From Amoebophrya sp. A120 (taxonomy: Eukaryota; Protista; Dinoflagellata): a stretch of 64,000 nucleotides of DNA. The translations under genes were made by a program, and so were the position numbers. Position 1 is the first letter of the stretch, and each line of letters opens with the position of its first letter. Location: contig CAJINV010000005.1 of the NCBI GenBank assembly GCA_905178155.1, forward strand, positions 2,420,054 to 2,484,053, given 5' to 3'. This document shows, piece after piece, positions 348 through 53,139 of this stretch. The notes under the pieces are model-generated. The model saw only the letters and a program-made list of their open reading frames with translations. It was not told the origin of the DNA and made no database searches.

Positions 348-3300
348 CCACCGAACAAAACCGCGGGCGCGATCGACTATTCCACCACGAAATTTGAGTG
401 CAAAAAGTGCCCGGAGGACAGACCCACAAGCCCGCCAAAGTCAAAATCCATCACGTTTTGTGCGAAGACTGGGAAGCAAACTTTGAAAATGGATGTCTCC
501 GTGAAGGACCCGAGCATTTTTGACGAACCGAAAACGGTCGAAGCGATTTTGGCGACTATGAAGGCTGACGGCGTTTTTGGGGAAAAGGACAGTTATGAGG
601 CGACGTTGGACGTGGTGAAGCCTCCTGCCATGGCGCTGCTGCAAAAAGACACCAGGACTGATGTTCTTGAAAAGCAGCTTGCGGAACAACAGACATCGAG
701 CGAGGAAATTGTAGACCGAGATAGGGATTTGCGAAGTACTTCTTATCCGTCGTATGACTCATCATCGCAGCCGGAAGGTGGCACGGCTGCACGGCCGGAA
801 GATGGAGAACAATTTTCGAATTATGCAGCAGCCGCAGCTTCCACCGAACGCGAACCTGACCTCGCGTCGCTTCTCGGCGCGGACTACGACCCAAACGACC
901 CGCTAGTCGCCGACCAGCTTCCCTCGCAATTTTTGCAAGTTAGCTCGAGTTCCACAACCTCCTCCGAAGCAAGGACGATTCTAACGCTGATTTTCACGGT
1001 GATAAACCAGCTTCCCCCCCTCGAGTACCCGGCAATTCAAGTCGCGTCTGGGTCAACTGGAAAGCCGTACCCCACGTTGCAGAAAGCGTTTCGCCTAATC
1101 TTCCCGCCGGAGGTTTATAATACCATTCAGATCAAGTTGCCGTTCGTCACTTGTGAGCCGGGTTTTGGGCAATCAGCGACGACGAACATGTGCGAAGTCT
1201 GCGCCCCCGGGTTTTTCGGCCCGGGCGGGTTGAGCCCGGGCTTGTGTCAAGTTTGCTCCGCACGGAAAACGAGCAACGCGGGCTCCGCGTTCTCGGATGC
1301 GGACTGCTACGGGGGGTGCGAACCGGGAAACGGGGTCAACTTTGCAACGAACAAATGCGAGCCTTGCAAACCGAACCTCTACTCCCCGGGTGGGAACGTG
1401 GAATGCAGCGAGTGCCCCCTCGGCATGACCAGTCCGGAAGGCGCGGGGTCGCTCCGGGACTGCACGGCGGCGTGCGAGCCCGGTTTCGGGGTCGCCGGCG
1501 CGACCTGCCAACTCTGCCCAAGTGGAACGTTCTCCGCGGGCGGGACGGATCCCTGCGAGCCCTGCCCCGCCGGATCCACGACGAACACGACGGGGTCCAC
1601 CAGCTCCGGGCAGTGCGGGCAATGCGGCCCGGAGTTCTGCAACTACCGAGGGCAGGCGACGGGGAACATTTGGAATTTGGACAACGGGGGCTGCCAGTGC
1701 AAATGCGAAACCGGGTACTCGGCCATGACGAACTGCGGCAGCTGCACCCAAGGGTACGAGAAGGATTCCACCGGTGCTTGCAGACCCTCCAGCGAGCGGT
1801 GCACGGTGAAAAGAAGTTGCAATAACCGCGGCGTCCCAATCAAACAGTGGAAAGATAGCACAGACACCCTCGAGCCCTGCCAGTGCATGTGCAAGGATAA
1901 CCGCTTGGACCCAACCACCAACTGCCTCTCCTGCAAAGCCTCGACCAACCTGAATCCGGAGGAAAACTGCGAGAACTGCATGGTGCCCCAACAGGACCGA
2001 TCGACCAACTGCAACACCTGCACCTCCGACGAGAAGCTCGACGCGTTCAAAAACTGCACGAAGTGCTTGCCCGGGGCGATCAACTGCACCGCGCCGAACC
2101 GGACTTTCGAAATGCTGTGGTTCTACTTGGGCGATCCGATGCACCGGAAGATGGAGTTCGAGATGGTGGAGCCGGTGGATTTCTCCTTGCAATTATCCCC
2201 CACGACGAAATCCTTCCAAACCAAAGCGCTCCAGACGTTGATCGACACCGCGGAACTGAAAGTCTTACCGAAGCCGTTTCCGAAAGTGAAGTTAAACAAC
2301 TACCGGTCCACCAAGACCTTCAAGTTCCTCGCGGGGAAATTACGGGATGAAAAGTTCAATTTCAGAATCACGGCCGGTTGGCCGGACGAGGTTGCGAACG
2401 AGACCAATGTGGACACGAAGGACGTGGCGATTTTGCGGCGAATATGAACTGCAAAAGTATCGTACTCGTATATAATTGCATCACAAATTTCCTCAGCATG
2501 AGAAATAAAATTTGTAATGCGAATTTACCTGAAGCTGAAGAAGAAGATTTGTAATGCATGATTGCAGTACGAGTGCGATACTTTTGCACAGGATAGCGGA
2601 AAATGGAACAAAATCGCTTCGCCGAAAATTCCCCCGTGCCGCTGGATTTTGCGGTAACCGCGACCAAGCTGTTGGAGTTCGACCTTTTGCCGTCCACTAC
2701 CGAGCCGGTTTCCTTCAAACTCCTGCCGCAATCGAAAAGATTGGAGTTGCCGAAAATCACGACGCCGTATGCGGACGAGAAGCTATATGCATCGCAAAAG
2801 TAAAAGTATCGCACTAGTTTGAAGAGTTGCAACACAAATTTTGTCAAGAACAAACATGCAATTTGTCATGCTAGTTTAGGTAGAAGGTTGGATTTGTCAT
2901 GCACGACTGCAATCACTACGGGCACTACGATACTTTTGCAGAGGATAAGCCAGGGCCGTTCAAAATCGCCCCGGAGGATTTGCCGAATCCGAAGTTCCGG
3001 ATCACGCCGATCCGGAAGTATTTCATCACGGAACTCTCCCAGCCGGTGAAGTTCGCGTTCAAAGTCACCGGCTCGACCCAAAAACTTTCCTTCAACGTGG
3101 AGAAGCAACCGCCGCAGTTTATCGATCAAAAAGCGGCCGAGGAGTGGAAGAGGGAGGAGGAGCGCAGGAAGAATCCCGTGATGCGAATCACGGACAAATT
3201 TCCCCAGCCGACCGGGTGCCGCATCGGGTACAACCGGATCGACTCGAAGAAGGACTGCGAGAAAGCGGCGGCGGCGATTCCAACCTGTAGACTGCCCGAA

Positions 3301-6300
3301 GTGGATCCGCGGATGAAGCCGAATCGGGATTCGAACCCGTTGAACGAAAAGTGCGAAACCAGGTGCAGTTCCGGCGGCGATATGGCGCAATCAAAGGAAT
3401 GCGAATTGCTTCCGCACATGAAGCCCAAATTCCCGTTTCACGTGGAGAACCGGCCGTTGATTAAACAGGGGTGCTACATCTCCGTGCAGAAGCAGGAGGT
3501 GGTCTGGAACGAGAACACAGTGGAAGAGGCGGCGCTGCCGGAGCGGGAGTACTACCACGTGTTGTGTCAGAAAGACGAGTTCTCCTACGGATTCCCCGAC
3601 CACCCGGCCGTGCAGTTCAGGATGCAGTTCGATCTGGACACGTTGTTTCACATCCCGGATGGGGTGAGTTGCAACATGCTTTTGGCGGTCTTGAAGTCGG
3701 ATGACTTCCTGGAGAAGTGGATCCCAACGGTGAAGGAGAATGCGGGCATCAACCAGTACGGGTCGGTGAACCTAGCCGGGTTGACGTGCCGGGGAACGGG
3801 CGTGGAGGGTTCCAGTGCGAAAGATGACGACAAAGCGGTCACGAAGTTCAACCAGAAAAGAAAGAAAGAATTGCTGAAGAAAGAAAAGGAGGATTTTGCG
3901 GATTCGAACGACTTTTCGCTGCTAGAAGTCGACAACGCGATGTTGAGCGGTGGTGATGATAGTGACGGTGAAGCTGAAGCGAAAAAGAAAGAAGTAGTTC
4001 CCGATTCAGAAAAATCAGATGTCGCAGCCCTGAACACGCGTCGCGGAGGACAAGAACTTCTGACCGGAAAAAGCACCAGCGAAGTTTTCGGCACCCCCGC
4101 GCCTCTCACCGTGGACCCGGATCTGGAGGACGAAGAGCCGATTTCCGTGCACTGGCAAGTCGTTGCGACGACGATCGACTTGTATGCAAGAAAAAAACTG
4201 TGTAAGTGTAAGTCTGTGATGCAAAGCATGTAACACTGTTACGCTTGTCATGCTAGGCAACCATGAAGTCCTATTTCATTTGTGTTTTCACTTACTAGCT
4301 GCGCATGACAGGCTTCGTCTGTCATGCAGAGCAGATTTGTCATGCCGTCACCCCAAGACACCTACACTAACACAGTTTTTTTGTTGGATAACTTGGACGT
4401 GGACGTGAAAGATGGTGAGGAGTTGAAGCTGGTGAAAAGAGTCGGTCTGGGCGTAAGAGAAAGTTTAGCAAACAGCAAAGCCATCACGGACCTCGGCGCG
4501 CAGCTCGCGGGGATCGCAGGTCCGATCCGAGCCCGGGTGATTTCGATCGACAAAGTGCCGTCCCCCTTTCCGAAGGAGGGTTTGCACGGCGACTACCCGG
4601 TGCCCGGTCTCCTCGGTGAGATAAAGCTCCGCGTGTACCACCCAGATTTGTGGATTTTGCGGAATAAACTTCTGATGTGGGTTTTTGGCCAAACTCTCAA
4701 ACCCTTTTTCGGGGTCCGGAACATGACCATGGTGCGGATCTCGGATCAGCCGGCGCCGAAAAACGAAACAATGTTCGAAGTACTGCAGCGAGAGGCGTCG
4801 ATTTTGCACCGGAAGCACAGACGGCACCGGAAGTGGGAAAGGAAAGTGTTGCACCAGGGGAAATTGTCGCCGATCGAGGTGTTTTTTCCGCGAAAGATGA
4901 CGAATCCGAGCATCAAGGAACAGAAAGAGGCGCTGGAGAAGCAATTGCAGCTGAGCAACGACTTTTACGGAGTCTACGACTTTGATGACAAGGAGTCCTT
5001 GCCTACTCTGGGTACTATGGAAGATGATCATCAAGAGCATAGAGTAGAACAGCCACAAGTTATTTCACCACCCCAAGCGACAGGTGGTCCTTTATTGCCA
5101 CTGGAAAACGACGATCTGTTGTTTGACGAAAGGCCACCGCACAACATACAGAACCAGCATCTGCAGCGGCTTACCCTCCTGCAAGTGCCGACGATCAAGA
5201 ACAAGAATTTTGAACTCGACATGGCGCAGCACATGCGGAACCACTTAACGCACTTCGGGATGGACTTCGACCACGATCATTTTCACTTCCCCGTTCCAAC
5301 CGAGCATCACGACATGTTTCTAGACCATAACGGCGATTTCGAGGTCCACACAGGAGCAACAGCGGCGGAGGCAAAAAGCAGCGGCGACGAGGAAAGATCT
5401 TCTCAAAATGAACACGGTGGCGCTTTTCTCCAAACCGATGCGAACGCCATGAGCCCCCTTCACGGCCACCTGGAAAATAAAAACGTCCCTGCGAAATCAA
5501 AAATTCTATCAGCTCGGAAAAACATAAACAAGACCACCGCCCGCCAGGTCTACCTGTCCGCCCTCCAGCTTCGCACGAAGGCGTCGAAACCGCTGAAAAA
5601 GCCGAAGACGGTGTACATCACGTATTTGGCGCAGGACGAGAGATTCCGGAACAATGTGCCGGAGATGGAGAAAACCAAAGAGATTATCATGAACTTGAAA
5701 CCCTCCACCGTCACTCCCTATGCGCGGAACTACTGCCAACAGCCGGACATGGTGACCCAACGGTTTTTTGAGCCCAAAATCTTGACGCCGAAGCAGGTGC
5801 ATGAATTGCTACACCCCTCTAGGCCGAAGGTGGTGAAGAAGAAGAAAAAGGAGCCTCCGAAGGATCTGACGAAGACGTGGAATATTCCGCCGAGAATGAT
5901 GAACGAGACGAAACCGAATCTAACCGCGCCAGTGAAACCAGAAGAGGCTGAGAAAGCGATCGCGCAGATGAATGTGACGGAAACGAGTACGACGACGGTG
6001 GAGCCGGAGTCGGAAGAGGAAGAGGAGGAAGAAGAGTCATCAACGGAGGAAACTGTTGATGAAGCGACCACGACCATGAACATCACCGGAGTGCACGACG
6101 AAGAAAAAGAGCAGAACATCACCACGCAACATACGGCATTCTCAACTGTTACATCCTCAACTGTTACATGGATTTGTGATGCAAGAACTGCAACAGTGAA
6201 ATAGGGTTCTTTGCGCTTCTTGAATGACAGAGTTGGCAAAGATTCTGAGCCTGTTGGGCTCGTCGAGAATTTGTCATGCGAAGCAGCTTGATCGTGTCGA

Positions 6301-9300
6301 TTCTAATTGCAATTTTGCATGAGAAAGCATGCAACACCAGTTGAGAATGTAACATTTGAGAACGCCATACAGCAAGTCTTGAACACGACAACCGGCGAGG
6401 TCGAGGATATGGATTGCAAAAATGTCTGGGTCTGGCAGACTGCAAGACTTGTGATGCACATTTTGCATGACCCACGAGGTCTGGAATGCAGAACCTAGCA
6501 TGAGAGATTCGGTGAGGTCTCCATCATGCCAATGCTGCATGAGAAACTCCCTCGCAGCTTGGTCGAAAGTGGACAGCTTTTGGCAGTCATGCAACACAGA
6601 TTTTTGCATGATTCTGATTTAGCATGACAAGTTCCACCTTTCCAGACCCAGACACTTTTGCATTTGATAGAGGAGGTGAAGGTGCAAAACGTGTACAACG
6701 AAACGACAGGGCAGATGGAGGAGGTATCCTGCGCAAAAGTATCGTACTCGTAGTAATCGCAATCATGCATTACAAACTTCCATCCCAAGGGAAAACAGCA
6801 TGACAAATTCCATTTATCATGCTGAGCGAATTTGTCATGCGATTTCTACTAGTACGATGCTTTTGCAATGCATAGGAAGTTCCAATCGCAAACGCAACGA
6901 ATTTAACGGTGACCCCGATCTCTCCCCCGGCGCCTGGTGTTGGGACGACGGCGGACGTCACAAACGCGCAACAGGCGATTGTGACGCAGTCCGGCGTGGC
7001 CTTGCTGTTCTGCAACCCGGGGCAGATATCAAATGCAACATAATGAAACCCTAGGTCTCAGAGAGCTAAACTTCTGATGCTGCATCTGGATGCTAAAAAC
7101 ATCTGTATTGCATGAGCAGCAAGAGGAATCAAATTTGGTTACGGGGAGAGGACATTTGTCATGCAGGATGCGCATCGATTTCGATGAGCGCTCAAAAAAA
7201 CTGTGATGCTAAGGCATACATCACAGACATCACGGATCATGGAAAATGTGCATGACAAACTTGTTCTCTCCCAGACTCAGACATGTTTGCAGTTCATAGC
7301 AGAAGGTGGTGGATGACCATTGCGAGGAGTGCCCGTACGGAACTTATTCGACGATTGGTGTGGAGTGTTTGGAGTGTCCGACCAACATGACCACCGTTGC
7401 GCCCTCCGCGACGTCTTTGGACTCCTGCGTCGGGAACTGTGAGCAGGGGTACGGCTGGACGGGCGCGATTTGTCGGCAGTGCGTGGACGCGGAGTACTCG
7501 GGCGCCGCGCCGGATGATCCCTGCCAAAAGTGCCCGGAGGGCATGATCGGCATCAACGCGACGTACGAGCGAATGATCGAGAACGTTTTCACCTTCCACA
7601 TGCACGATTTCCACCCGAAGCGGGTGATTGAGATGAACGCGACCGCGAATGTGGCGAACCAAAAGTTTGCTGTCAACGCGGATCAGAAGGAGAACGGGTT
7701 TGACTTAACGCCAAGATCGGAGAAAACCAAAAACATTGACTTCACCCCGAGAAGCGAGAAAAACCAAATCGATTTCACACCGCACGACGAGAAGTACGCG
7801 GTTCAAGCAGCTGCGAGGTCTATGGAAGTGTCAGAATCGAAATCAACAAAATCGAAATAATTTGTGATGCATAAAATCGATACCACTTGGAGCCTCAGTT
7901 TTCAAGTGGCGCATGACAAATTTCGGGAGCACCAAAATCCAGTCTGTCATGCTGTTTGGGCAAAGAAGACTGCTCCTGGCGTGCTGCTCCGGCAGCACAT
8001 CGCCTTCCCCTAATCAGGCTTGCAATCGGTCTCATTTGCCTACTCCCCAACACAGGCCTTACTTGCCCTACATTTTACGCATTGCAAATTTTTCGATTTT
8101 GTCGATTTCGATCCTGACACATCCATAAGGTCGGAGCCCGCGAAGTTCGACGTGTCTGGGAAACAACCCACTGCGTATCCTGAGTAAAAACATCCCCACA
8201 CCAGAGTCAAGATGGGGACTTTGCAACACAAACCTAGAACTTTTGGGGGTCACGCATCACAAGTTGCAGTCCGTAGTGTAGTGCAGGTTCGCAAAGCCAG
8301 CTGCATCAGAAATCCATCTGCTGATCCTATTTACAGCATTACAAATTCCAAAACACGACTAAAAATGGTTCTCCTGGCGATGCGCATTACAAATGTTCCC
8401 GTCATTGCAAATCTGCATGACAACTCTGGCGTGGGGACGTTTTTACTCAGGATACTGCGGGCGTGAAAATCACGGCGGACAGCCCCACCGCGGATCTGAA
8501 AATTCTCCCGAAAGACCAGCCGGAATCGAATGTGACCGTGTCTGCGAAGGAGGGAGAAACACAAATGAAGTTGCAACCAAAGAAACAACCGCAGTCGGAG
8601 TTCAGTGTAAACCCCGGGAGCCAAAAAACGAACCAATTCGATGTCCCCCTGGGGGAAAAGACGGAAAAGAAAGCGCAGTTCGGAGTTTTAACTCCGGACC
8701 AGACCAATCTGCTTTCCCGGCGGAAATTTCTTGCGAACCAAGCCGGGAAGTTTCCCTACATTCCGGGGATCGACTACATCCCGAGCAGCGACTTCCTCGA
8801 TGCGTGGTCGGCGAAGTGCAAGCCCAATTGCGCATTAGGACATTACTTCAACATCACCGTCGGGGCGTGTCAAGTTTGCCCCGTGAACCAGTACGGGTAC
8901 GGCGGGCCGATGCTGCAGTGCTTCCGCTGCCGTCCGCCGTTGGTGACCCGCGATCCGGCGGGCGGGGCTGGGAGTGATGAGAAGTGTTTTCCCCCCTGTA
9001 AAGCGGGGGAACGCTGGGGCCCGGAGGATAAGAACGATCCGGCGAGCAAGTTCGTCTGCGCGCCGTGCGAGTACGGGACCTACGCAACGGGTTCCCACTG
9101 GTCCGGCGCGCCCGGCTTGGGCGACAAGTGGCTTTCGCACCCGTGGCAGTGCGAGAAGTGCTCAGACAAAAAGCCGATCACGTCCACGAGCGGTGCAGTC
9201 TCCGACTTGCAGTGCGCGGTGCCGCCAATCACGAAAATGGCGATCAAAATCTCCGTATCAACTGCAAATATCGACGAAATCTGGGTCGTGTGGGAGGTTG

Positions 9301-42300: not shown

Positions 42301-45300
42301 CCTCGCGGACCGCCGCGACGCTTTGGTTCGGAACGCGAACAAGCTGTTGCGGCGGAAATTAAATCTCAAAGGAGAAAAGGGGAAGCTTGCTTTTCAGAAG
42401 TTGACGAAAGGGGACATTGACGACTTGGAGGATCACGCAAAGTGGCTGAAAGAGTTGACAAACCGGACTTTTGAAGAATATTTGACCCGGTGGCGGGAAA
42501 GGCAAGAGGCGTTGCGGCGGCAGCGACTCGCCGGGCAACGGGCGGAACAGGCGGAGAAGGAGCGGCTGCGGCGGCTGGAGGAGGCGGAGAAGGACGAGAA
42601 GCAGGGGGCGAGGGATCTGATCACGCAGATCAAGATCTACCTGGACATGATCCACGAGTTCGAGATAAAATACCACTTAACGCCGGACAAGTGGTCGCAG
42701 ATCAACGAACAGCAGGAGATCGCACAGGTGGAGGAGGACGGGAAAGTGGTCGAGGCGGCAAAGAAGTTGGCCGAGGACTTGGCGTATCAAATGCAAATAT
42801 GTCTGCGTCTGGAAGATTCTAAACTTGTGATGCTGTGTCTGGATTCTAAAAAAATTTGTATTGCATGACCAGCAAGAGGACTCCAGTTTGTGCTACTCGG
42901 AGAGGACATTTCTCATGCGGTAGAGGCATCACAAAGCCGTCGAAAAATCTGTGATGCTAGAGCATGCATCACAGACATCATGTGTCATTCAAAATATGCA
43001 TGAAAAACCTGGCAATCTTCCAGACCCAGACATTTTTGCAGTTGATACGGCGCGGGAGTTGCAGCACCTGAAAATCGTCGGGGAATTGGTCGCGCCGCCA
43101 CTGTCGAAGACCACGTTGTTTGTGAACATCAGCATATGCAAGAAAAAAACTGTGTAAGTGTAAATCTGTGACGCAGAAAATGCAAAACAGTTATACTTGT
43201 CATGCTGGAAGAGCGTCATAAGCTACTATCTTACGTGTTTCCACTTACTAGCTGCGCATGACAGGTTTTCCCTGTAATGCAAAGCGAATTTGTGATGCTG
43301 CTCTTCCTACAAAGTTACACTTACACAGTTTTTTTCTTGGATACAGCACCGATGGATCCACTTTCGGGCCCGGGGACGCGGAAAAAAGGGTGCAGGAAAA
43401 AGCGAAGGAAAAGCGGAAAAAAATGTTCTCCCGACTCTGGTCGGCCGAGAAAGCGGACCGGAACTCCCCGTACACGTGCGACCCGGGATTCGGACCGGTG
43501 GTCAGTCCCTCCGTGCCGATAAAGCAGATTGAATGCCTGCCCTGTCCGAGGGGGACGTACTCGCCCAAGGGGGTCGTGTGCCGGCCCTGTCCGGCGAACA
43601 CGATGTCGCCCGCGGCTGCCACGCGGATAACGGACTGCCTCGGGAACTGTCCGAAGGGGTATGGATGGGAAAATCGCAGGTGCAGAAAATGCGACAAGCT
43701 GAAGGAGTTCGCCGCGAGTCCGAGTTCCCCCTGCGTGAAATGCCCCACGGGGACGGTATGAGAGTGCACAACTCCCGCCCCTCCCCCTCATTTGTAATGC
43801 AAAATACCAAACTCGCACCTTGCTCGTAAGCACTGCTAGCATGACAAATTTTGGAACCTCAAATAGTAATACAATCTGCACGCTGATTTGTCATGGGAAA
43901 GCCCCTTTTTTGCTGTTGCTTGTGTTGCTGTATATGCCATACAAATAAGGGGGAGGGATTGTTGTGCACTCTCATAGACGGAAGTCGTGGATGTGAACGA
44001 CAAGAAGTGTCAATCTCCGCCGGGTTTGATGGAAGGCACTACGAATGCAGATCCGGGAAAAGTCGAACCCTGGAAGCTGTTTTGCTCCCCGAAATGCCCT
44101 ATCAAATGCAAAAGTGTCTGGGTCTGGAAGAGTGTGAACTTGTCACGCAGGTTTTCCATGACTCTTGAGGTCTGGAATGCGTGACCTAGCATGACAGAGT
44201 CTGTGAGGTCTCCTTCATGCCTATTCTGCATGAGAAACTGCCTCTATCTAAAATTGTTCAAAAGTGGACCTCTTTTGGTAATCATGCAACACAGATTTTT
44301 GCATGATTCGGATTTAGTATGACAAGTTGCAATCTTCCAGACCCAGACACTTTTGCAATCCATATGCCTGCCCGGGCAGGAGTGGTCCGACGAGGGTGGC
44401 TGCATTGACTGCCCGCTGGGATCTATCGCAAGAAAAAACTGTTTCACTGTGAACTTGTGATGAATAGAATGGAAGACAGAACTATTTGTCTTGCCACACC
44501 TGCAAGACCTCGACTCTTTAGCGGTGTTTTCCCTTTGGAAGCGCGCATGGCAAATTATCTGTGTCATGTGTAACAAACTTGTGATGCAGATCTTGCAAGA
44601 TCATCACCGCTGTGAGACAGTTTTTTCGTGGGATAGGATCTTTTTCCCCGGAGGGGCAGAAGTGCCGGAAGTGCTTTCCGGAGTACACGACGCGGTATCC
44701 GGCAAGCATCATGATCGACGACTGCATTCCGGAATGCAAAGCGGGCTACTCCTGGGGACCAAACGTGAAAACCGGCGCGCTGGGGTGTAAGATCTGCCCC
44801 CGGGGCACGTTCACCACGCCCTCGCAGATCGCGACGAGTTTGAACTTTACGGCGAAGAGATTGGACTGCGACTTCTGTCCCGAGGGCAAATCGACCTTCC
44901 GCGAGGGTGCGACCAGCCGGTTCGAGTGCATCGAGCCGGCGGTTTCCGACATTCTAATCCGCGTCCGGCCGAATGAACCGGAGAAGTACGATAAGAAAGC
45001 GCTGACTCTTTTGAACGACATTGTTCTGAAGATGGTGAACGACAAAATCGGCGGGGCGACTCTTGAAGCCTACAACATCACGGCAGAGACAACCCTGACA
45101 AAACCGACCGGGGGTTTCATGCTACTGCAATCCAACGGTAAAATCGAGGAGCAGTACGTCGCGAATGCGGAAGATCAGCAGTACGCGGAAGTGAGGTTGA
45201 AAATCGCAGAAATTTTCCCATCGTACGAGGAAGCGGCGAACTTGACGACAACCCCAAAACCGGACCGAACCCAAAAACCCTTCGACGCGCGGGGCATGTG

Positions 45301-48300
45301 GGACGTTCTGAAGAAGGACGAATCGTTGAAAGCGGTCACCAGACTGTTCTTCAAAGCGATCGAGGTGACCTGCAAACCCGGGTTCGGCTTCAAGCCGAAT
45401 GTGACTGACGACGCGATTTGCTACCCGTGCCCCGTCGGGTTTTTCGGTTTGGGGGGCATCGATCCGGAGTGCGAGCGGTGCGAAAAAGGGTGGTCCAGTT
45501 CTCCCGGGTCCACGGAGTGCTTTCCGGTCAACTGCATGCCGGGCGAGGGGCTGTTCAGACAAGCGAAAAAGTGCGAAATCTGTCCGCCGGACTTCTTCGG
45601 GAGCGGGAAGGATCAGCCGTGTTTGCCGTGTCCGAACGAGAACACACACAGCGCTGCTGGGTCACCTGATTTATCCAGCTGCAAGGCGAATTGCAAGTGG
45701 GGGGAAGGGTTCTTCGGAGGGAACAAGTGCATGCAGTGTCCGGCGAACAGCTTCTCCGCCGGCGGCTCCGATTCTTGCACCGTGTGCCCGGCCGGAACGG
45801 GCACGGGACCCATTTTGCCGCATGTCGTTCCCTGGACGTTAGACGATCCCGACGGGAAGAAAGCGATCATCACCGGGTTCTGGCAGAAGACCCAGTGCGG
45901 GCTGTGCAAAAACGACGTGCACTGCAACGGCGCGGGAATCGCCTCGGGGAACAGCTGGGACACCGAGAAGGGCGGGTGTCGGTGCGACTGCAATCCTGGG
46001 TATGCCGTATCAAATGTAAAAATGTCTGGGTCTGGAAACTTGTGATGCTGTGTGGCGTATCATGAGGAGGCCACAATTGCTGGCTCAGCATGACAGGTTT
46101 CTGAGCTTCTAGGTGTTGCCTATTCTGCATGACAAACTACGTTTCTGCATGACAGAAAAGTGGGGCTCTTTGGTAATGTGCATGACAGATTTAAGAGTCA
46201 TGCCAGAGAAGCATGACAAACTTGCATTCTTCCAGACCCACACATTTTTACATTTGATATGCCGGACCGAGTTGCAACTACTGCGCGGAAAACTACGCCC
46301 GGGACGAACGGACAAACAAGTGCAGGTCTTTATCAAAAGGAAAAATCCCCCCTCCCCATATCGAACGGGTACGCTTCCGGAAATTTGTGTTGCTGATTTG
46401 AGGTCACAAATCGCGTTTGTCTTGCAAGAAGACAAGGGCAGAAGCTTCCGCCCCATTATGGAAGCGATTTGTCATGCTGTTAGGCCTAAAGGGGAGCCGT
46501 TTGCCATGCTGAACAACTAGACCCATACGCCCCTACCTGGGGGCGTATCTGGCCGCAATGCCTCTCTGTAATACAGACCTGAATCGTGTACGCAAATCCA
46601 GCATAAGAAACTTCGTTTCGATAGGGGGAGGGGGGATTTTTCATTCTCATAGTCTTTGGTCACCGAAAAGTGCCCGGACGCGGCGTTTCTGTGCAACGGC
46701 AGGGGGCAGCTCGTGAACCTGTTCGAAGATGAGATGACGAAGATCTGCGAGTGCGTCTGCGATTCCGACGTGTACGACAGGCGGAACAACTGCCAAACGT
46801 GCTCCGCCAGTCGCTTATTGGACCCGCAGTCCCAGTGCGAGCGGTGTTACCAAATGCAAAAATGTCTGGGTCTGGAAGAATCCGAACTTGTGATGCTGCA
46901 TTTGGATTCCAAAAAAATCTGTATTTCATGACCAGCAAATAAGGGAATGCAATTTTGGCAACGCGGAGAGGGCATTTGTCATGCGGAATAGGTATCGCGA
47001 AGCCCTCAAAAAGTCTGTGATGCTAGGGCATGCATCACAGACATCATGGCCCAGGCAAAACGTGCATGACAAGTCTCAGAATCTTCGTACACCCAGACAT
47101 TTTTGCATTTGATAGGTGTTTAGACGACGACTTCGACCCATTGACGAACTGCAAGGAGCGGAAATCCTGCATGCAGACCAACACGTGCGTCGCGCCGCCG
47201 GTGTTTTTGTCTCCCTTCTTCTGTCCCGCGGGGTGGCAACCGGTGAGGGAGGAAGAAAAATGCAGGGAGATCGCGAGTTCCTTACCGACTTGCGGGAAGG
47301 AGTTGGTGGAAAGACGATCCACACTCTACGCCCCCTCGGACAACTACATGACCATCATGCAGAACGCGACCTGCTCCTTCCTCTGCGCCCAGGACCCCGC
47401 GACCTGCGGCGAGCTCTGGGCCTCGGGCACGTCTCTGTCCGCCGTGGCGCCCGACGCGATGGCCGCGGTGAACGCCCCGGCCGGGTATGTGGAGCAGGTG
47501 AAGCACCGATTACAACAGAAAGAGCAGGGTCTGGACGAAAACTCATTAACTTTCACCGGCGGAAATCTAGGCCTCCAAATGCCAAAAGCGTGTTACTTCG
47601 TGCATTGGGAGGAGGAGAATTCCGTCGCGGTGGTATTCAACGATTTGGTGAAAAAGAAGTACGACATGAAAGTTTACCCCGAAACAAAAACCGCTGCGCT
47701 CACCATTCGCGAGATGCCAAAGGCGCAAATCGGATTGCCGAAATTTGACGACTTGAAGAAACACGACCCGAAACTGACGACCCCGATAATTTCAGCGAAT
47801 AAGCAGGAATTCAAATTCGATTTGACCGACCCGCAGTGGCAGTGGAGAGATAAAACGTCGAAATTCAACATTTTGCCGCAATTTTCGGGCACGAAAAATT
47901 TGAAATTCGACGTCGAGACGTCCGATTTAGCGCCAGAAAGTGTACTGTTCAAGAAGAAGACTTCAGTGGAGGAGGAAACCAATTACCGGGAAGGAAAAAC
48001 AGAAGAGAAAAAGCAGCGCGACTACTTGTTCAACGTAAAGGACGCGAAGGGGGAGGAAAATGACTACGCGATACGACAACGGGCTTTGCGGTTCGACGCC
48101 GTGCGGCCGGTTTCAACCTCGATGGAATTCGAGTTAGAGCATGAGAAGGATAGTATTAGCACAACTGTAGGACGAGATGTTGATCCCGGTGTTGAGACCA
48201 CTAATTCGAGGCTGTTGGAAAAGATCGAAAAGAACGAAAATCTCAACGCCGAAGGGAAGGCGGACATCACCTTTTTCACTAAAGCGAAGGACTTCTTCCA

Positions 48301-51300
48301 CCGGGTGAAAAAGTTGACGTTTGGAAACTTGTGGAAAGAGGAAAAAGCGAAGGAAAAGGCGAAAGAGCAGCAAGTGAAAACCAAGAAGAAGAACCTTCCC
48401 CCTGCACTGGACCACAAAGCGGGTGGAAAAAGTGGCACAGTGGAAGCTTTGGCGAAGGAAAAGAAAAGCCTGCCGGCGCCTTTGGAGAAGGCCAAGGAGA
48501 AACAAGAGGAAGTGCAACTAGCGCCGGGAGCGGAGGGTGTGCACTACAAGAAAACTTTTCCGGTGTCTTTGGCAGAGGAAACTCGACAGGACACCACAGG
48601 TTTTAGACCGAGTTTGAGTTTTCACTTGAACAGTCCGGAAAGCGGTGAGGATGCGGCGTTTTCATCCCCTGGTGACAAAAATGTTGAGCAAGAAGACCCC
48701 ACGGCCGAACAAGAGCTTTCTCTGCTGCAAAGTTCCAAGCTCCAAGCCACCGGCGTCCTTTTCCAGCCGGCAACACTGTTCAAAGCCAGAGCGCGCATGC
48801 TGTGCGAACGGCAGCAGGAACAAGGACAACCGGCGGAACAAAGTTTGTTGGCCGTCTATTCATCCTCGGGCGGTAGAGCCACTAGTTCCTACGAAAAGCA
48901 GTACGCGATAGCCCCGTTGCCTATGAAAGATAAATCCTTCTGCCCGCAGAACCTGCAGAGGATCGCGCTGTTCAGCACCGAAGCAAATGAATTCTCAAAA
49001 TCCACCACCTGTTTCCCCACCTGCCACGCCGGCCAGCGCTGGAACGGCAAGCAGTGCGAGGCGTGTCCGGCCGATAGCTTCATGACGGAATTGCACTGGT
49101 GGCGAAAGCGGGAGGAACCAGTGACCAACTGGGCGGGATATAACGAGCACACTTGCGAAAAGTGCCCGAGAAATAGAAGGTTCACGATAGGAGGAGTTCC
49201 TGCTGCTGCGCTTGGAGGACAGCAATTCCTATCAGCATCACCGTCCAGGACCGGGAAAACGAGCAAGAATCACTGCGTCGCGCCCCCACTCACAACCATC
49301 CAGATCCGAATACCAAATGGCGAGCAATCGTTTCTGACGCTGTTGCAAGAGAATTTAGACGAGGAGTATTTCCGGCTGAGTAGCGACAAGAAAAAAACCG
49401 CGGTTTTAGAGGTGGTTTCCGAGGAAAACAAGGGATACATTTTCCAGCAGTTTTTCCAAAAAGCACTGAAATCCACAAAGGGATTATCCAAGCTTATCGA
49501 GCTCCAAGACTTCAGCATTGACGACGGGAAGACGCCACAGCAGGTGGGAAACGCGAAGTCTCTGACGTTTTTGACCAGTTCGTTACCCGAGGAACTAACC
49601 AGCCAGCACGAACCACAGGTGACGATCAACGTGAGGATACGAACGACCGAGCCAGTGGAGCTGATGTCCAAGCGGGAAGTGAGAAGCTTAAGAGGGTTGA
49701 AAGCGCTCTTAGCCGAAAAGTTGTTCCAACCGCAATTCGCAACCTTCGCCGACGTCGCCGCGGCCGATACGGATAACAACCTCTCCAGCAGCTGCGCGCC
49801 GGGGTACGGAAAAATTGAAATACCGGATGAAAGGAATGATGGAAAAAGTGAGCTGTCCTTTCTCTGCGAACAAATCTGCGACGAGGGTTCCTTCTCTCCC
49901 GGTGGTGATCACGCGGTGTGCACTGCCTGCCCGGATCACACGAGCAGCTTCCCCGCTTCTGGTAATTGTTTACCGACCTGCTCAGCCGGCTTTGGCCTGT
50001 CGGCGGCAGCGCCGAGGAGTACTTCTAGCGAGTCGTACGACAAGTTTATTTCATCTGGTGAAAGACATAATTCTGAAACTGCCTCTTCCCAAAATATCGG
50101 AACTACAAGTTCTACCTCCTCCCGCACCTGTGTCTACTGCCCCAAAAACCACTTCGGCCCCGGCAGACTGTCCGAGTGCCAAGAGTGCCCGGCGAGTCGC
50201 CCCATTTCCATGCCGGGGAGCTTATCCAAGAAAAAAACATTGTAGGTGTAACTTTTTTGGAGGAACAGCTGCATTACAAATTTGTCTGGCATGACAGCAA
50301 AAACCTGTCATGCGCAGATAGTACGCGAAAACGCCCTTTAATGGACCCTGCGATGCATGCCAAGCATGACAGACGCAATCATCCTGCATATTGAGCATCA
50401 CAAATTTACTTACACTAACAGCGTTTTTTTCTTGGATAGAGCTCGTCAGTGGAGCACTGTCGGGTGAGTTGCAAGGACGATGAGAGTATCAAATGCAAAA
50501 GTGTCTGGGTCTGGAAACTTGTAATGCTGCGCTGGGAATAGTGAATGCTCTGTAATGCCCAGGCAAGCATGAGAAGTATCTGCGCTTCTTTGTGTTACGT
50601 TTTTCGCATGACAAACTGCGTTTTTGCATGACAGGCACAAGGGTCTCTTCTTGGACACGCATCACAAACTTTTTGGTCATGCCAGACAAGCATGACAAAT
50701 CCCAAAATCTAGCGGACCCAGACATTTTTGCATTTGATAGAGAGGTGGGTGCCCAGGATTGGGAGATGTGTTTTGGAGGACGAAATGGAGGAGCAGGACT
50801 TGGCTCTGACGGAGGAAAGCATGTTGACGCATGGGGACGAGCAGTTGCTATCAACAGATGGAATAAATTCACCAGCATCTTCGCCTCTTTGGCCCCATGA
50901 CGTCGTAGGGGACACAGTTCTAGGCGAGGGCAGCACGAGTGCTGCAGCTCCTCGGGAAGATTCATCATCATCTTCATCTTCTCGTCTTGGTGGGCTTTTC
51001 CCATGGAAAACCGCAAATACACAAGCCGCACGGGAAGGGGAAGACGAAAAAGAAAAAGCCAAAAACGATATTGCCCCACAGCACCTGCTCCTTCCCGTCG
51101 CTGCTGATCCGAAGAAGAAAAGAGAAAAAGAAAAACAAGCCATTCTCGCCGAGGTTGGTCGAGCTGCGGAGCAAAGCGAGCAAGCGCAAAGAACGCATGA
51201 AGGACCAGCAGGTGGACCACAACAAGACGAGCACTTCCTTTATTCCCCGGAGGAGCTAGCTGCCGTGAAGAAGAGAGCGAGACAGGAACTGACGCTCGTG

Positions 51301-51657
51301 CAGTCGTATCAGCCAAACTTACAAGCCATGTCTCAAGAATTGGCGGAGAGAACGGCGGAGAAGAAAATTTTTGCCGAAAGCAACGACGAAGCAGCTGGCA
51401 CAACTTCTGCGTCGTCCTCTCCTCGTGTAGAGGTAGCACGCACGGCGCAGCGTGGTAGTGCAGATGAAGCAGGAGTAACAATGGTGCACTATGGAAAAGG
51501 AGCAGGAGATGAGCCTGGAAATAAAGGGAAAACTACCAGCAACCACGCTCCGAATCTGCTCATGACCCAAACAACGGAAAGCAGACCGAGCTCCGCTCCG
51601 AAAAAACCCATCGGGTCTCTGGTGAAAGGCTTGTCGTTCTTCAGACAAACTAGATAA
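348..51657 (+). CDS. Giant multi-exon Cys-rich, probably secreted or surface protein (~12,200 aa in window, 5'-partial) with GCC2/GCC3 (Ephrin_rec_like) repeats, EGF-like modules, a CAP domain and low-complexity linkers
   Basis: The successive + strand ORFs (264, 2603, 2899, 4324, 7306, 8463, 9596, 10721, 12627, 16753, 17230, 19697, 22697 ... 47030, 50728) join into one frame when each TAT...ATA element plus one 5-bp direct repeat is removed (49/49 frame-consistent). Stop TAA at 51655-51657. Start at 348 is a tentative acceptor (tttgcag); the true 5' end is probably upstream of the window. Confidence 0.85.
1150..2090 (+). other. Cys-rich supermodule copy 1 (GCC2/GCC3-like repeats + EGF-like)
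   Basis: CxPGxG...CxxCPxGxFS repeats followed by CNYRGQATGNIWNLDNGGCQCKCETGY. Confidence 0.8.
2443..2595. mobile_element. Introner 1, TIR family A (TATnnnnTGCAAAAGTATCG)
   Basis: TIRs; DR gcgaa/gcgga; 158-nt removal restores frame. Confidence 0.88.
2786..2947. mobile_element. Introner 2, family A
   Basis: TIRs; DR agcta/agcca; frame restored. Confidence 0.88.
4183..4390. mobile_element. Introner 3, family B (TATsCAAGAAAAAAAC)
   Basis: TIRs; perfect DR acttg; frame restored. Confidence 0.92.
6132..6369. mobile_element. Introner 4, family J (TATGGCGTTCTCAA; TAC start here)
   Basis: TIRs; DR caaca/cagca; frame restored. Confidence 0.88.
6408..6669. mobile_element. Introner 5, family C (TATnnnnTGCAAAAATGTCTGGGTCTGG)
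   Basis: TIRs; perfect DR gagga; frame restored. Confidence 0.93.
6725..6874. mobile_element. Introner 6, family A
   Basis: TIRs; DR ggagg/ggaag; frame restored. Confidence 0.88.
7027..7298. mobile_element. Introner 7, family C (left TIR decayed)
   Basis: Perfect DR gcaga; interior matches introner 14; frame restored. Confidence 0.88.
7821..8127. mobile_element. Introner 8, family D (TATGGAnnTGTCAGnATnGAAATC)
   Basis: Long TIRs; perfect DR aggtc; frame restored. Confidence 0.92.
8176..8454. mobile_element. Introner 9, family E (TATCCTnnGTAAAAACnTCCCCAC)
   Basis: TIRs; perfect DR ctgcg; frame restored. Confidence 0.92.
9256..9576. mobile_element. Introner 10, degenerate family C
   Basis: Decayed TIRs; DR ctccg/acccg; 326-nt removal restores frame. 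Confidence 0.72.
9935..11200 (+). other. Cys-rich supermodule copy 2
   Basis: Same architecture; CNNRGLSVTGNTWDDAHNGCQCVCEEGY; interrupted by introner 10651-10912. Confidence 0.8.
10651..10912. mobile_element. Introner 11, family C
   Basis: TIRs; perfect DR ggtag; frame restored. Confidence 0.93.
12305..12454. mobile_element. Introner 12, family A
   Basis: TIRs; perfect DR acatg; frame restored. Confidence 0.92.
12496..12801. mobile_element. Introner 13, family F (TATTACAATGAAAnTGCC)
   Basis: TIRs; perfect DR tccag; frame restored. Confidence 0.9.
13785..14640 (+). other. Cys-rich supermodule copy 3
   Basis: CNYRGTPKGNTWDSNGCMCGCDEGY preceded by CPxGYYS repeats. Confidence 0.8.
14905..15495 (+). 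other. CAP/SCP/PR-1 domain within the giant protein
   Basis: Motifs HNLYRCLHNVPPLIWN, FGENIA, WWYEDE, IGHYTQVVWGDSWELGC (CRISP signature) and VLCQYGRGGNV. Confidence 0.92.
16432..16694. mobile_element. Introner 14, family C
   Basis: TIRs; perfect DR cgcgg; frame restored. Confidence 0.93.
17124..17283. mobile_element. Introner 15, family A
   Basis: TIRs; perfect DR actgt; frame restored. Confidence 0.92.
18944..19349. mobile_element. Introner 16, family G (TATnnnAGGAAAAnTCCCCCCTCCCCATAT), with small nested insert
   Basis: TIRs; perfect DR tggtg; frame restored; 85 nt longer than siblings 22 and 46. Confidence 0.92.
19430..19686. mobile_element. Introner 17, family C
   Basis: TIRs; perfect DR cgagt; frame restored. 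Confidence 0.93.
20921..21440. repeat. Copy 1 of a diverged ~500-bp duplicated domain inside the nested insertion
   Basis: Shares blocks (gccgctgcacgaaga, ccccggtactcgagcacgc, ccccatgaccaacctatgaaa, accgagcgcacccgcttcctc, atgccgagggacttt, gggacggttga) with 22006-22499. Confidence 0.85.
22006..22499. repeat. Copy 2 of the duplicated domain
   Basis: Same conserved blocks in the same order as 20921-21440. Confidence 0.85.
23318..23579. mobile_element. Introner 19, family C
   Basis: TIRs; DR acgac/ccgac; frame restored; reverse complement of introner 5. Confidence 0.92.
24203..24348. mobile_element. Introner 20, family A (TAC start)
   Basis: TIRs; poor DR cgttt/aggtt; 151-nt removal restores frame. 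Confidence 0.78.
24460..24627 (+). other. Probable canonical GT-AG intron (168 nt, in frame, stopless)
   Basis: T-rich stretch gtatag...ttttccaacgcacag; removal gives EWTG-FDD. No TIR. Confidence 0.5.
25195..25446. mobile_element. Introner 21, family C (TAC start)
   Basis: TIRs; perfect DR gaacg; frame restored. Confidence 0.92.
26310..26630. mobile_element. Introner 22, family G
   Basis: TIRs; DR gcctg/gccgg; frame restored. Confidence 0.9.
28806..29044. mobile_element. Introner 23, family J
   Basis: TIRs; DR gcgtc/acttc; frame restored. Confidence 0.82.
29817..29967. mobile_element. Introner 24, family A
   Basis: TIRs; perfect DR ggagc; frame restored. Confidence 0.92.
31204..31418. mobile_element. 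Introner 25, family H (TATGAnAGTGCACAACT)
   Basis: TIRs; perfect DR gggac; frame restored. Confidence 0.92.
32291..32554. mobile_element. Introner 26, family C
   Basis: TIRs; perfect DR gacgg; frame restored. Confidence 0.93.
33138..33381. mobile_element. Introner 27, family J
   Basis: TIRs; perfect DR ggagt; frame restored; opposite orientation to 4 and 23. Confidence 0.92.
33458..33719. mobile_element. Introner 28, family C
   Basis: TIRs; perfect DR tggaa; frame restored. Confidence 0.93.
34546..34798. mobile_element. Introner 29, family C
   Basis: TIRs; perfect DR ggtga; removal in frame (the element itself is stopless in that frame). Confidence 0.92.
34871..35026. mobile_element. Introner 30, family A
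   Basis: TIRs; DR cgccg/cgcct; frame restored. Confidence 0.9.
36347..36609. mobile_element. Introner 31, family C
   Basis: TIRs; DR cctgg/cctag; frame restored. Confidence 0.9.
36656..36907. mobile_element. Introner 32, family C
   Basis: TIRs; perfect DR tctac; frame restored. Confidence 0.93.
37274..37533. mobile_element. Introner 33, family C
   Basis: TIRs; perfect DR gacac; frame restored. Confidence 0.93.
38071..38297. mobile_element. Introner 34, family I (TATCGnAGGAAAAAAGTGTT)
   Basis: TIRs; DR agcag/agtag; frame restored. Confidence 0.88.
38358..38609. mobile_element. Introner 35, family C
   Basis: TIRs; perfect DR ccgcg; close sibling of 32 and 45; frame restored. Confidence 0.93.
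38894..39149. mobile_element. Introner 36, family C
   Basis: TIRs; perfect DR ttcac; reverse complement of 29; frame restored. Confidence 0.92.
39531..39795. mobile_element. Introner 37, family C
   Basis: TIRs; perfect DR gcatg; frame restored. Confidence 0.93.
41016..41277. mobile_element. Introner 38, family C
   Basis: TIRs; perfect DR ggcgg; reverse complement of 11; frame restored. Confidence 0.93.
41327..41591. mobile_element. Introner 39, family C (TAC start)
   Basis: TIRs; perfect DR tcgca; frame restored. Confidence 0.92.
42785..43047. mobile_element. Introner 40, family C
   Basis: TIRs; DR tggcg/cggcg; frame restored. Confidence 0.91.
43135..43343. mobile_element. Introner 41, family B
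   Basis: TIRs; perfect DR cagca; frame restored. Confidence 0.93.
43757..43976. mobile_element. Introner 42, family H
   Basis: TIRs; perfect DR gacgg; opposite orientation to 25; frame restored. Confidence 0.92.
44100..44364. mobile_element. Introner 43, family C
   Basis: TIRs; DR tgccc/tgcct; frame restored. Confidence 0.91.
44424..44635. mobile_element. Introner 44, family B-like
   Basis: TIRs; perfect DR ggatc; frame restored. Confidence 0.9.
46008..46259. mobile_element. Introner 45, family C
   Basis: TIRs; perfect DR tgccg; frame restored. Confidence 0.93.
46331..46651. mobile_element. Introner 46, family G
   Basis: TIRs; perfect DR gtctt; frame restored. Confidence 0.92.
46848..47114. 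mobile_element. Introner 47, family C (TAC start)
   Basis: TIRs; perfect DR ggtgt; frame restored. Confidence 0.92.
50223..50438. mobile_element. Introner 48, family B
   Basis: TIRs; perfect DR gagct; frame restored. Confidence 0.92.
50487..50739. mobile_element. Introner 49, family C
   Basis: TIRs; perfect DR gagag; sibling of 28; frame restored. Confidence 0.92.
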
Positions 51658-52862
51658 AAGTGTACTTTTGTTGCGCCGCCTGATTTTGCTTGTTTTCAAT
51701 TTTCCGTGTGCCTTCCTAAAAATTTGGTCATCATCTTAATCAGCCTGTACGTAGATCCAGCGCTCCTTTTCTCAATTGGTTGTGCAGATGTAGAATAAGT
51801 ACTAGCATGCGGGCACTAAATCTTGAAACCAAAACTTTCCTATGTAGCATAGCTTTGAGACTTGATAGAAACCGAAAACCTAGCGAGACTTAAGTGTAAA
51901 TTTGTATTCAGCGAGGCTTATAGCAATGCAGACACCAGCACGACGGTTCTGTCTCTGCGCAAAAGCAGTCATTTTTTTTGTGTCTCTCAACAACTAGCAA
52001 ATTGGATAAATTCCAAGAATTTTTTACGTTTGAAGTATAATAGCAAAGCTAGTCAGAGTCCGACGTAGCACCACGCGGACAGATAAAATCAAAAAGTAAG
52101 ATGATGAACAATATCACCATACATCCGGATGAACACTTAGCGAGTTTCTTTGTTTCAAATCTAGTGACCAGAAGAGAGCACGTCTCTACCACGACGCTGC
52201 GGCGCGTCCAGGGTCTGATTGGGTAGCCGCAGCGAGAGCACGCAGCCGCAGGATTTTTGGATAATATACTCAAAGCCATCTTTTTCTTTTTGAATTTACG
52301 TTTACCAAAACCAATGCTTCGAAAAGTTTCATACAGGACCAGCATAGGACAGCTTGGGTTTCTAGCTTGTTTCGCTTTACGTAGACAGAAGGCAACTTCA
52401 TCAAAGAGTTGTATTGGTGATATGACGCACACGCAAACGCCACGCGAGGGCGCAAAAACAAGAGCCAAAACAGCTCGCGGAATTTTGTAGCGTTTTTTGA
52501 ATTTATAAATAATTATCGGGAAAAGTTAAACTACAAAACGCACTCGGTTGGGACAACGTCGAGGTCTTTTGATGATATCGAGATGTTAGTTGTCTCAAAA
52601 AATCGACACCTGAATTAAATAGGAACTTGATCGGTAAGCAGCTGCTCCGTTTTCGGTTTTTTCTCACTGATATCGTGGTCTTACTACAGTCGCCTCGCAT
52701 AAAATATTTGATTTTTTCTAGTGTCGGTAGAAAAAATCAAAAATATGTAGAGAAAATCATAACGAGAAGAAAAGAGAAAAAAGAAGAGAAAGGATACAAA
52801 GAGAAAATCAAACGAGAAAACACAAAGACGACGATTTTTCTCACAAGAAGCACGCGCCTCGT

Positions 52863-52896
52863 TTTGATTTTTTCTACAGCTGTAGAAAAAATCAAA
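52863..52896. repeat. Perfect 34-bp palindrome
   Basis: tttgattttttctacag|ctgtagaaaaaatcaaa; a related hairpin lies at ~52707-52741. Confidence 0.85.
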
Positions 52897-53139
52897 CGGG
52901 ACTCGTCCGAAACCGAGAGAAGCGAGAAAATGGCAAGAACTCGAGAAGTTCTCACTTTTTCTCGAAGTTCTCGCTTTTTCTCGAAAGTCTTCTCGTCCCG
53001 CCCATTCGAGGCCAGCGGCCGAAAACCTCCAAAATACGGTAGAAAAAATCAAACACCTCCGGGGAAAATCAAAAGACCTCCACCCAGAAGCGGAAAAGCC
53101 GAATACACGCGCACGCGCGAAGCGATGCGCGAAGCCCCA

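Follow-up and report, generated by a model that had tools for sequence, protein, structure and literature searches.

Along the + strand of a 64,000-nucleotide (nt) stretch of the Amoebophrya sp. A120 genome (GenBank assembly GCA_905178155.1, contig CAJINV010000005.1, positions 2,420,054 to 2,484,053 of the forward strand; hereafter the window), long open frames are interrupted at intervals of a few hundred bases, which raises the question of whether a single giant gene is hidden there and what kind of protein it would encode. We report that such a gene is very probably real and that, after in-silico splicing, positions 348-51657 yield one open reading frame (ORF) of 12,242 amino acids (aa). 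All coordinates below are those of the window, and the features of the gene lie on its + strand unless stated otherwise.

Reconstruction of a Hidden Reading Frame

The breaks in the open frames are elements with inverted ends (TAT...ATA), flanked by a 5-nt direct repeat. The intron model started from a list of 54 candidate pairs of terminal inverted repeats (TIRs) with flanking direct repeats; eight of these were discarded (cross-pairs, duplicates and weak scores), one (59643) fell outside the giant gene, and four introners (2786, 9256, 24203 and 28806) were added by eye, giving 49 in the gene. Excision took out each of the 49 TIR introners along with a single copy of the 5-nt direct repeat flanking it, plus one GT-AG intron of 168 nt, for a total of 14,581 nt. 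The spliced product of 36,729 nt comprises 51 exons of 33-3,625 nt, is open at its 5' end and encodes 12,242 aa (mass ~1.33 MDa) followed by TAG at 51655-51657, the one stop in total. The initial annotation had given 14,581 nt removed and an ORF of about 36.7 kb, and the first value was exactly reproduced. The 168-nt intron (24460-24627), the only canonical GT-AG intron, is a predicted splice, in frame and stop-free, with a GC content of 0.39 and a non-coding codon score of -0.29; its boundary was picked so that the frame holds, and retention of the intron would likewise keep the frame.

Removal lengths from element+2 to element+8 were compared, and element+5 alone left no internal stops, whereas element+3, +4, +6 and +7 gave more than 250 stops and +2 or +8 also introduced internal stops. 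For 49 of 49 internal exons to be open at random phase, log10 P is -18 (with one boundary chosen by frame). When trained on the RNA-covered part, codon bias agrees with the frame in 12 of 13 blocks of 1,000 aa, and the failure is confined to the final 242-aa tail block. Alternative genetic codes (tables 4 and 6) were rejected, as neither explains the stops. An ortholog fragment, P0038 (493 aa, from a 1,536-nt contig), matches aa 2163-2544 with 41% identity (E 1e-104) and is colinear across the introner at 9256. The introner insertions fragment the gene into micro-exons of down to 33 nt (e.g., 36615-36655 and 6375-6407).

RNA-like Contigs and Continuity of the Gene

Contig sets were compared with the model on two stretches, 33,001-53,000 and 17,001-37,000. 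On the first, a single contig of set X1, 10,472 nt in length, aligned in spliced pieces with 0 other letters, and the spliced model from 37,942 to 52,498 has precisely this length. This contig covers aa 9033-12242, contains micro-exons of 43 nt and 44 nt, and joins the last 16 junctions to 841 nt of untranslated region (UTR), showing that these junctions are spliced in one contig with the 3' UTR. All 15 listed joints (of 24) skip element+5, and 11 of these recur in set X2. The stop at 51655-51657 is firm, and the 3' UTR (51658-52519) lies under RNA-like contigs that extend to 52498 in X1 and 52519 in X2; the transcript therefore continues beyond 51657 to at least 52,519.

Upstream of the long contig, more contigs halt at the exon ends 34,540 and 36,345 and then continue, adding five junctions by the model. 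Short X1 and X2 exon contigs on the 17,001-37,000 stretch reach upstream to ~17.7 kb; no X1 or X2 cover was found in bin 24338-25004, and the joint rows listed on this stretch are repeat-derived rows of set X3. A raw RNA run, X6 (2026), gave 16 aligned reads, all partial and uninformative on starts or ends. Contig depth falls toward the 5' end (X1 from 42 to 5.8 to 2-5, X2 from 28 to 7.3 to 3-5), a gradient that matches a long 3'-biased transcript but was not used as support because depth cannot rank gene parts. Upstream of 34,546, support comes from the frame, codon bias and ortholog colinearity at the 9256 introner.

Ends of the Gene and Public Annotation

The first Met of the ORF is aa 48 and has no signal-like core, aa 7-47 match a Cys repeat at aa 3119-3161 (E 6e-4), and unit 1 of the domain architecture described below lacks the first ~130 aa found in units 2-4. 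Because the ORF opens inside a Cys repeat and unit 1 is incomplete, the gene probably starts upstream of the window, in disagreement with the initial annotation, which had placed the start at 348; 12,242 aa and 1.33 MDa are therefore lower bounds. Bases 1-347 are non-coding in all three + frames and show no match to the introners of the window. They could end either at a canonical AG at 347 or at a weak introner end at 332 (score 9, against an exonic 95th percentile of 8.5).

The public protein CAD7949982.1 (P0002; GSA120T00012154001; unnamed protein, Amoebophrya sp. A120; 3,063 aa) is identical to aa 9180-12242 and represents only the last quarter of the giant ORF, lacking at least 9,179 aa. 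The initial annotation had expected standard gene callers to break the frame up into dozens of genes, but in the public collection the gene is truncated instead. The public protein begins at the internal Met aa 9180 (38870-38872), which is also the earliest Met encoded by the 10,472-nt contig and has no signal-like core. The annotation pipeline is described as built on transcript alignments (PMC7789003), and we attribute the truncation of CAD7949982.1 to this reliance. P0002 alone shares 12-mers with the model among 151 proteins gathered, and when exon 1 was searched with HMMER against 1.84 billion representatives, no near-identical protein appeared among the 150 of 546 matches listed. The gene id is absent from the 10 supplementary files of PMC6176090 and the five of PMC9478091 examined, although other supplements may list it, and a literature search listed no publication on this protein in the collection searched.

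How much of the ORF belongs to one gene was weighed against two alternatives. The claim of a single gene stood directly for aa 9033-12242, which the RNA-like contig covers; that the upstream ~9,000 aa share this transcript is highly probable, on the strength of the frame, the codon bias and a single ortholog fragment. Several points weigh against continuity: the listed RNA joints all lie downstream of 38,068, the five junctions between 34,546 and 37,274 rest on contigs halting at exon ends, and X1 and X2 derive from one sample whose RNA nature is only guessed and whose data CAD7949982.1 may share. A split into at least two tandem genes that share the frame, or an internal start that makes the 3' part (~3,100-3,800 aa) an independent transcript with the upstream frame separate or rarely used, would agree with the start of the long contig at 37,942 next to a neighboring one that ends, by the model, at 37,675, with the start of the public annotation at aa 9180, and with the absence of the upstream part among the public proteins searched. 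The gap between 37,675 and 37,942, however, sits within an open exon, Met 9180 lies within the last strand of a module and lacks a signal-like core, a marginal hydrophobic core follows just one of 219 Mets, and the dependence of the annotation pipeline on transcript cover (PMC7789003) bears on where public models begin. The 36.7 kb are also free of stops, and the only non-coding room consists of introners with intact ends. The most plausible site for a gene break is the longest intron (20404-22875), an introner of the family of 8176 with a ~2.17-kb insert, a duplicated target and a T-run, yet it is in frame and has an intact TIR pair and direct repeat. We consider separate genes improbable. 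Far more improbable still is that the frame arose artificially through in-silico splicing or that the locus is decayed: 29 junctions rest on the model without RNA, four elements were positioned by eye and the frame decided one intron, but a single fixed rule holds the frame at 49 of 49 elements, and in-frame codon bias and the ortholog fragment also speak against it. The RNA-like contig and the element+5 rule largely refute this explanation.

Introners as Introns

Introners of A120 have been described with inverted ends of TAT + 7 nt + AAA, short direct repeats of 3-5 nt and non-canonical splice sites (PMC7789003), and tens of introners within single genes have been noted (PMC12130899). The 49 elements in the giant gene (2443-50744, in both orientations, mostly 146-406 nt) carry this A120-type signature and are thus of an already known type, alike in inverted ends, direct repeats, splice sites and number per gene. 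Together with the element at 59643, the 50 elements of the window fall into 12 sequence groups, namely eight of 2-23 copies and four singletons. Their inverted ends typically read TAT, then 7 nt, then at least three A, and some begin with TAC. The direct repeat is 5 nt long at all 49 sites, with both copies identical at 35. Mismatched copies place the cut after base 4 of the repeat: the splice point lies at or after base 4 at 36347 (a contig end), and no later than base 4 both at 44100 (Leu 10331 in the public protein) and at 34871 (an X2 piece from 35027). Given a uniform cut, introns start N-T (GT in 22 of 49) and end in AG in just four of 49. The uniform 5-nt repeat with a cut after its fourth base differs from the 3-5 nt given in PMC7789003.

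Within the longest intron, the insert at 20451-22618 (~2.17 kb) has a 17-20-nt duplicated target, a T-run at its left end and a 430-bp internal duplication (75%), and is without an ORF of more than 120 aa. By these features it appears retroposon-like, on the minus strand and nested in a transposon intron. The bin 21670-22336, a unique intron bin, has a depth of 0 in X1 and X2 and of 75 in X3.

Domain Architecture

The Pfam scan covered 36 exons. PF07699 (Ephrin_rec_like/GCC2) scored above its 23.1-bit cut-off in eight of these and below it in one more, and a CAP domain (PF00188, E 1.4e-8, 36 bits against a cut-off of 21.1) was found at 14931-15476 (aa ~3817-3998), where its GHYTQVVW aligned to CAP proteins of the PDB, 15 of which matched at E<=0.01. 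Four GN(T/I/S)W motifs, against 0.1 expected, occur at aa 439, 2577, 3613 and 10785. The four GN(T/I/S)W-type Cys supermodules, the GCC2/GCC3 clusters and the CAP domain of the initial annotation were in this way recovered, as were the beta-rich repeats (30560-34024, aa 7311-8130; self-BLAST E 1e-32, no Pfam match) and the lack of a C-terminal transmembrane (TM) segment. No TM segment was seen anywhere in the ORF, the highest 19-aa hydropathy being 1.41. An Rfam search gave 0 matches.

The Cys-rich parts form five higher-order units, each consisting of GCC2 repeats and a spacer module, and four of them end in an EGF-like GN(T/I/S)W block; three GCC2 pairs and the CAP domain stand outside the units. 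Unit 1 (348-2081, aa 1-578) opens with the end of a GCC2 repeat, followed by a type-B module with ALLQ and QFLQ, a GCC2 array and an EGF-like GNIW block. Unit 2 (8817-11194, aa 2132-2726), of which P0038 covers aa 2163-2544, has a type-B module with DLLQ and a GNTW block, as does unit 3 (12819-14630, aa 3113-3716) with SFVQ and a GNTW block and unit 4 (44080-47164, aa 10325-10905) with MLLQ and a GNSW block. Unit 5 (49010-50763, aa 11521-11945) is degenerate and lacks a GN.W block.

The Cys-poor parts have no Pfam match, yet they are repetitive. About four copies of a helical repeat with the signature G..(F/L)L..W lie at 25871-29563 (aa 5990-7030; self-BLAST E 4e-5 and 1e-3, and alignment) and have no Pfam or ESM Atlas assignment. 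A charged, helical-looking stretch, as judged from its sequence, occupies 42368-43452 (aa 9990-10190), and the ORF closes with a low-complexity charged tail (50764-51654, aa 11946-12242) that has neither a TM segment nor a hydrophobic end of the glycosylphosphatidylinositol (GPI) type.

Downstream of the gene, a GC-rich satellite with ~91-bp units and higher-order periods of 235, 410 and 496 (53070-55480) separates it from a myosin-like gene (56364-64000; Myosin_head E 6e-18, weak IQ), which has long insertions and one introner (59643-59950) and runs off the window.

Probable SEA-like Modules in the Cys-poor Spacers

SEA domains carry an autoproteolytic site of the GSVVV type, and the pieces of cut SEA domains stay paired through shared sheets. 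The module loops inspected in the giant ORF have hydrophobic-Q/E words instead, although no systematic search for a GSVVV-type site was made. The Cys-poor part for the most part consists of repeated modules, missed in the initial annotation, that we interpret as probably SEA-like. At least 12 unannotated beta-alpha-beta modules were recognized, namely seven of type A, with a C..C pair, and five of type B inside the units; six of seven type-A copies were recovered above reversed decoys in leave-one-out searches. By sequence, the layout is strand-helix-strand, a variable loop of ~40-120 aa or more, and again strand-helix-strand. The first half of one type-A module (C..C, 3625-3801, aa 985-1043) is followed by SLLE and that of another (24089-24416, aa 5588-5646) by ALLQ. 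A third copy (29975-30559, aa 7116-7310), which was the one folded, has a loop with an RRRR run and no strict motif, and a fourth (34043-34870, aa 8137-8325) has a loop with GLVQ only. The remaining three (37886-41700; first halves at aa 9015, 9305 and 9607) are followed by NLLE, SFLQ and AFLQ.

We judge it probable that these spacers are ferredoxin-like, SEA-like modules. In a VIA comparison of the modeled copy, SEA domains made up four of the top 11 rows (Z 5.0-5.7, root-mean-square deviation 3.2-3.7 A over 68-73 residues), a placement with which a SEA fold is compatible, though not proven. Several results count against this assignment. The SEA rows are tied with unrelated ferredoxin-like folds at Z <8, the best rows are collagenase helper domains rather than SEA domains, the AlphaFold2 model of aa 7116-7310 is confident for the first half alone (mean pLDDT 54.8, weak), and in a second fold model the module was not formed. 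VIA on the ortholog model gave helical hairpins only, Foldseek on the type-A model found no match at E<=0.001, and Pfam SEA had no match in the 36 exons (E<=0.01) or in P0002 and P0038 (E<=0.1). Neither a type-B module nor the helical repeat obtained a usable match from the ESM Atlas (best 0.82).

A Candidate Cleavage Motif in the Module Loops

Plasmepsin X is reported to act on the peptide sites SFIQ, SLVQ, FFIQ, NFLQ, SMLE, SFLE, SFLD and SFVQ (PMC7146544), with the cut falling between the two hydrophobic residues (PMC10113190), and clade-C proteases are described as maturases of apical secretory organelles (PMC8540915). The pattern [FLM][LIV][QE] occurs in 11 of the 12 modules of the giant ORF against 3.6 expected (type-A loops 6/7, 1.0 expected; type-B modules 5/5, 2.5 expected), and the stricter [SNAF][FLM][ILV][QE] in seven against 1.0 expected (type A 5/7, 0.27 expected; type B 2/5, 0.75 expected). 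SFVQ at aa 3328 and SLVQ at aa 5233 are identical to sites listed in PMC7146544. In a MAFFT alignment, GLLQ, DLLQ, SFVQ and QFLQ fall in one column block, and P0038 retains LLQ in a longer, unalignable loop. Over the whole chain, S[FLM][ILV][QE] is mildly enriched (6 against 2.5). The substrates of plasmepsin IX/X and TgASP3 have four-residue sites (SFVQ, SLVQ, NFLQ, SMLE) cut between hydrophobic residues (PMC7146544; PMC10113190; PMC8540915), to which the candidate sites of the giant ORF may correspond, but in these sources they have one or a few sites, compared with about a dozen candidates in repeated modules here. As the modules contain putative maturation sites, the product may, once mature, consist of more than one chain.

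Sequence Evidence for Probable Secretion and Glycosylation

Among the non-homopolymer trimers of the ORF, N-glycosylation words exceed expectation most strongly (NAT 23 against 3.8 expected, NIT 12 against 1.5, NVT 15 against 3.0). NxT exceeds its expected count in 11 of 13 blocks, i.e., in every block up to aa 11,000, whereas the neighboring myosin, a cytosolic control, has two against 7.1 expected. The gene product had been proposed to be a giant adhesin, wall or invasion-apparatus protein. This was borne out in part, in that the sequons, Cys modules and CAP domain support a role outside the cell or in a secretory organelle.

Related Proteins and Alternative Functions

Proteins like SCUBE/SVEP1 of animals (mollusc, annelid, hemichordate) are similar to the giant in GCC2 arrays (~33% identity) followed by EGF-like blocks, in an alpha/beta spacer before the GCC2 array and, in the case of P0122, in a polybasic loop. 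The RRRR of P0122, in the domain directly before its GCC2 array, may parallel a furin-type site. Similarity is confined to the Cys repeats, and an identity as SCUBE/SVEP1 was rejected because the CUB, Sushi, HYR and LamG domains of those proteins, which often also have a C-terminal TM segment, are all absent from the exons scanned. Unit 3 gave one weak match of 7,992 candidates among proteins of 703-2,005 aa, residues 100-1020 of P0002 gave none of 7,990 among shorter proteins, and metagenome scans returned 91 and 195 matching stretches, none of which was confirmed.

Two groups of known proteins suggest functions other than that of a cleaved precursor. The CRMPs of apicomplexans (PMC9815656) and the GCC2/GCC3 proteins of Babesia, described as surface proteins (PMC9843837), are likewise large alveolate proteins of the surface or invasion apparatus with Ephrin_rec_like and EGF-like modules, and CRMPs are reported to have long insertions and nine TM segments and to control rhoptry discharge (PMC9815656). 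The giant could accordingly be the ectodomain of a CRMP-like membrane sensor that serves the invasion apparatus and has its TM part in a further exon or a partner gene. It has the cysteine-rich, EGF-like ectodomain, but 0 TM segments against the nine that define a CRMP as described in PMC9815656, and for this reason we do not classify it as one; moreover, the contig passes the stop into ~860 nt of UTR, which makes a further exon at the 3' end unlikely. The CAP and SEA-like modules and the far greater length also set it apart from both groups, and we regard a CRMP-like sensor as a very slim prospect. A more serious competitor is that the giant is secreted as a glycoprotein but never cut, and serves as a filament or coat of mucin-like or ruler-like character comparable to the mastigoneme proteins of Chlamydomonas; LLQ and FLQ would then be structural or fortuitous. 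In that system a cysteine-rich domain is present in MST1, and filament length may be set by MST3, a single chain of great length (PMC11015965); the giant, itself a probable extracellular glycoprotein, resembles these proteins in its TNFR-like cysteine-rich rod, and the best Foldseek match to the GCC2 array of the ortholog model was the mastigoneme chain 8wa2_A (E 4e-4). That match is, however, limited to the common TNFR-like repeat (TM-score 0.15), the Ig array, poly-proline helix and PKD-like anchor described for MST1/MST3 (PMC11015965) have no counterpart in the giant, with poly-proline tracts and a PKD-like anchor not seen in the ORF, and the motif is concentrated in module loops and retained in a diverged ortholog loop. 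We assign the uncut filament a minor but appreciable share of the probability.

On the side of such a filament, and thus against a cleaved precursor, stands the finding that the literature pattern [SNF][FLM][ILV][QED] shows no enrichment when the protein is counted as a whole (10 against ~8), while the cytosolic myosin control also has an excess of [FL]LQ (6 against 2.0). The positional motif tests were designed after the pattern had been seen, conservation of the motif rests on the single fragment P0038, the last 1,242 aa contain 0 NxT against 3.3 expected, and a signal peptide, if present, would lie upstream of the window.

Proposed Mechanism and Significance

The balance of these arguments leaves the polyprotein reading at about even. 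On sequence grounds, a secreted glycoprotein precursor that is cut at hydrophobic-Q/E sites in SEA-like modules and gives rise to an adhesive surface or extrusome scaffold falls just short of an even chance, with cleavage, location and function all predicted. We hold a narrower proposal to be rather unlikely, namely that the single secreted precursor, of more than 1.33 MDa, is a polyprotein in which the same loop of the SEA-like modules supplies the cleavage sites, about a dozen of them and all of the plasmepsin X/ASP3 type.

In the proposed scheme, a single gene with 50 introns in the window would produce one very long mRNA, which in all likelihood would include the upstream ~9,000 aa, and the chain would with comparable likelihood enter the endoplasmic reticulum via a signal encoded upstream of the window. 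The chain would be glycosylated and disulfide-bonded, and its spacers would probably fold as ferredoxin-like, SEA-like modules. With even chances, a clade-C aspartic protease resembling plasmepsin IX/X and ASP3 would cut between two hydrophobic residues in the long central loop during organelle maturation, and the halves would remain paired in one sheet, so that GCC2 rods, the helical and beta blocks and a CAP head would be held together non-covalently in an assembly that can be released. More tentatively, the product might serve host attachment or form a coat of the infective stage. Trichocysts, which are thought to serve host attachment, are described as made by sporonts (PMC9478091) and count among the candidate sites of the product; further candidates are the cell surface and flagellar hairs, the latter because the GCC2 array resembles the mastigoneme protein MST1 (PMC11015965).

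The A120 genome shows that transcript-led annotation can drop the 5' parts of very long genes, and the combination of inverted ends and 5 nt, cut after base 4, provides a simple rule that recovers such parts from DNA alone. If our reading holds, the precursor would be among the longest secretory proteins of any protist, and the maturase code of apicomplexan secretory organelles would extend to a syndinian dinoflagellate parasite; if the sites are real, this link to plasmepsin X-type maturation is open to N-terminomics and existing protease inhibitors. Amoebophrya is a marine parasite that controls dinoflagellate blooms, and a survey of apicomplexan-like invasion genes reported only TSP1/vWF proteins and one rhoptry-like protein in it (PMC6176090). 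With three quarters of its chain absent from the databases, this probably extracellular protein of 12,000 aa is a candidate for the attachment or coat machinery still missing from that inventory and would, if confirmed in this role, offer a first molecular handle on the attachment or extrusome machinery of Amoebophrya.

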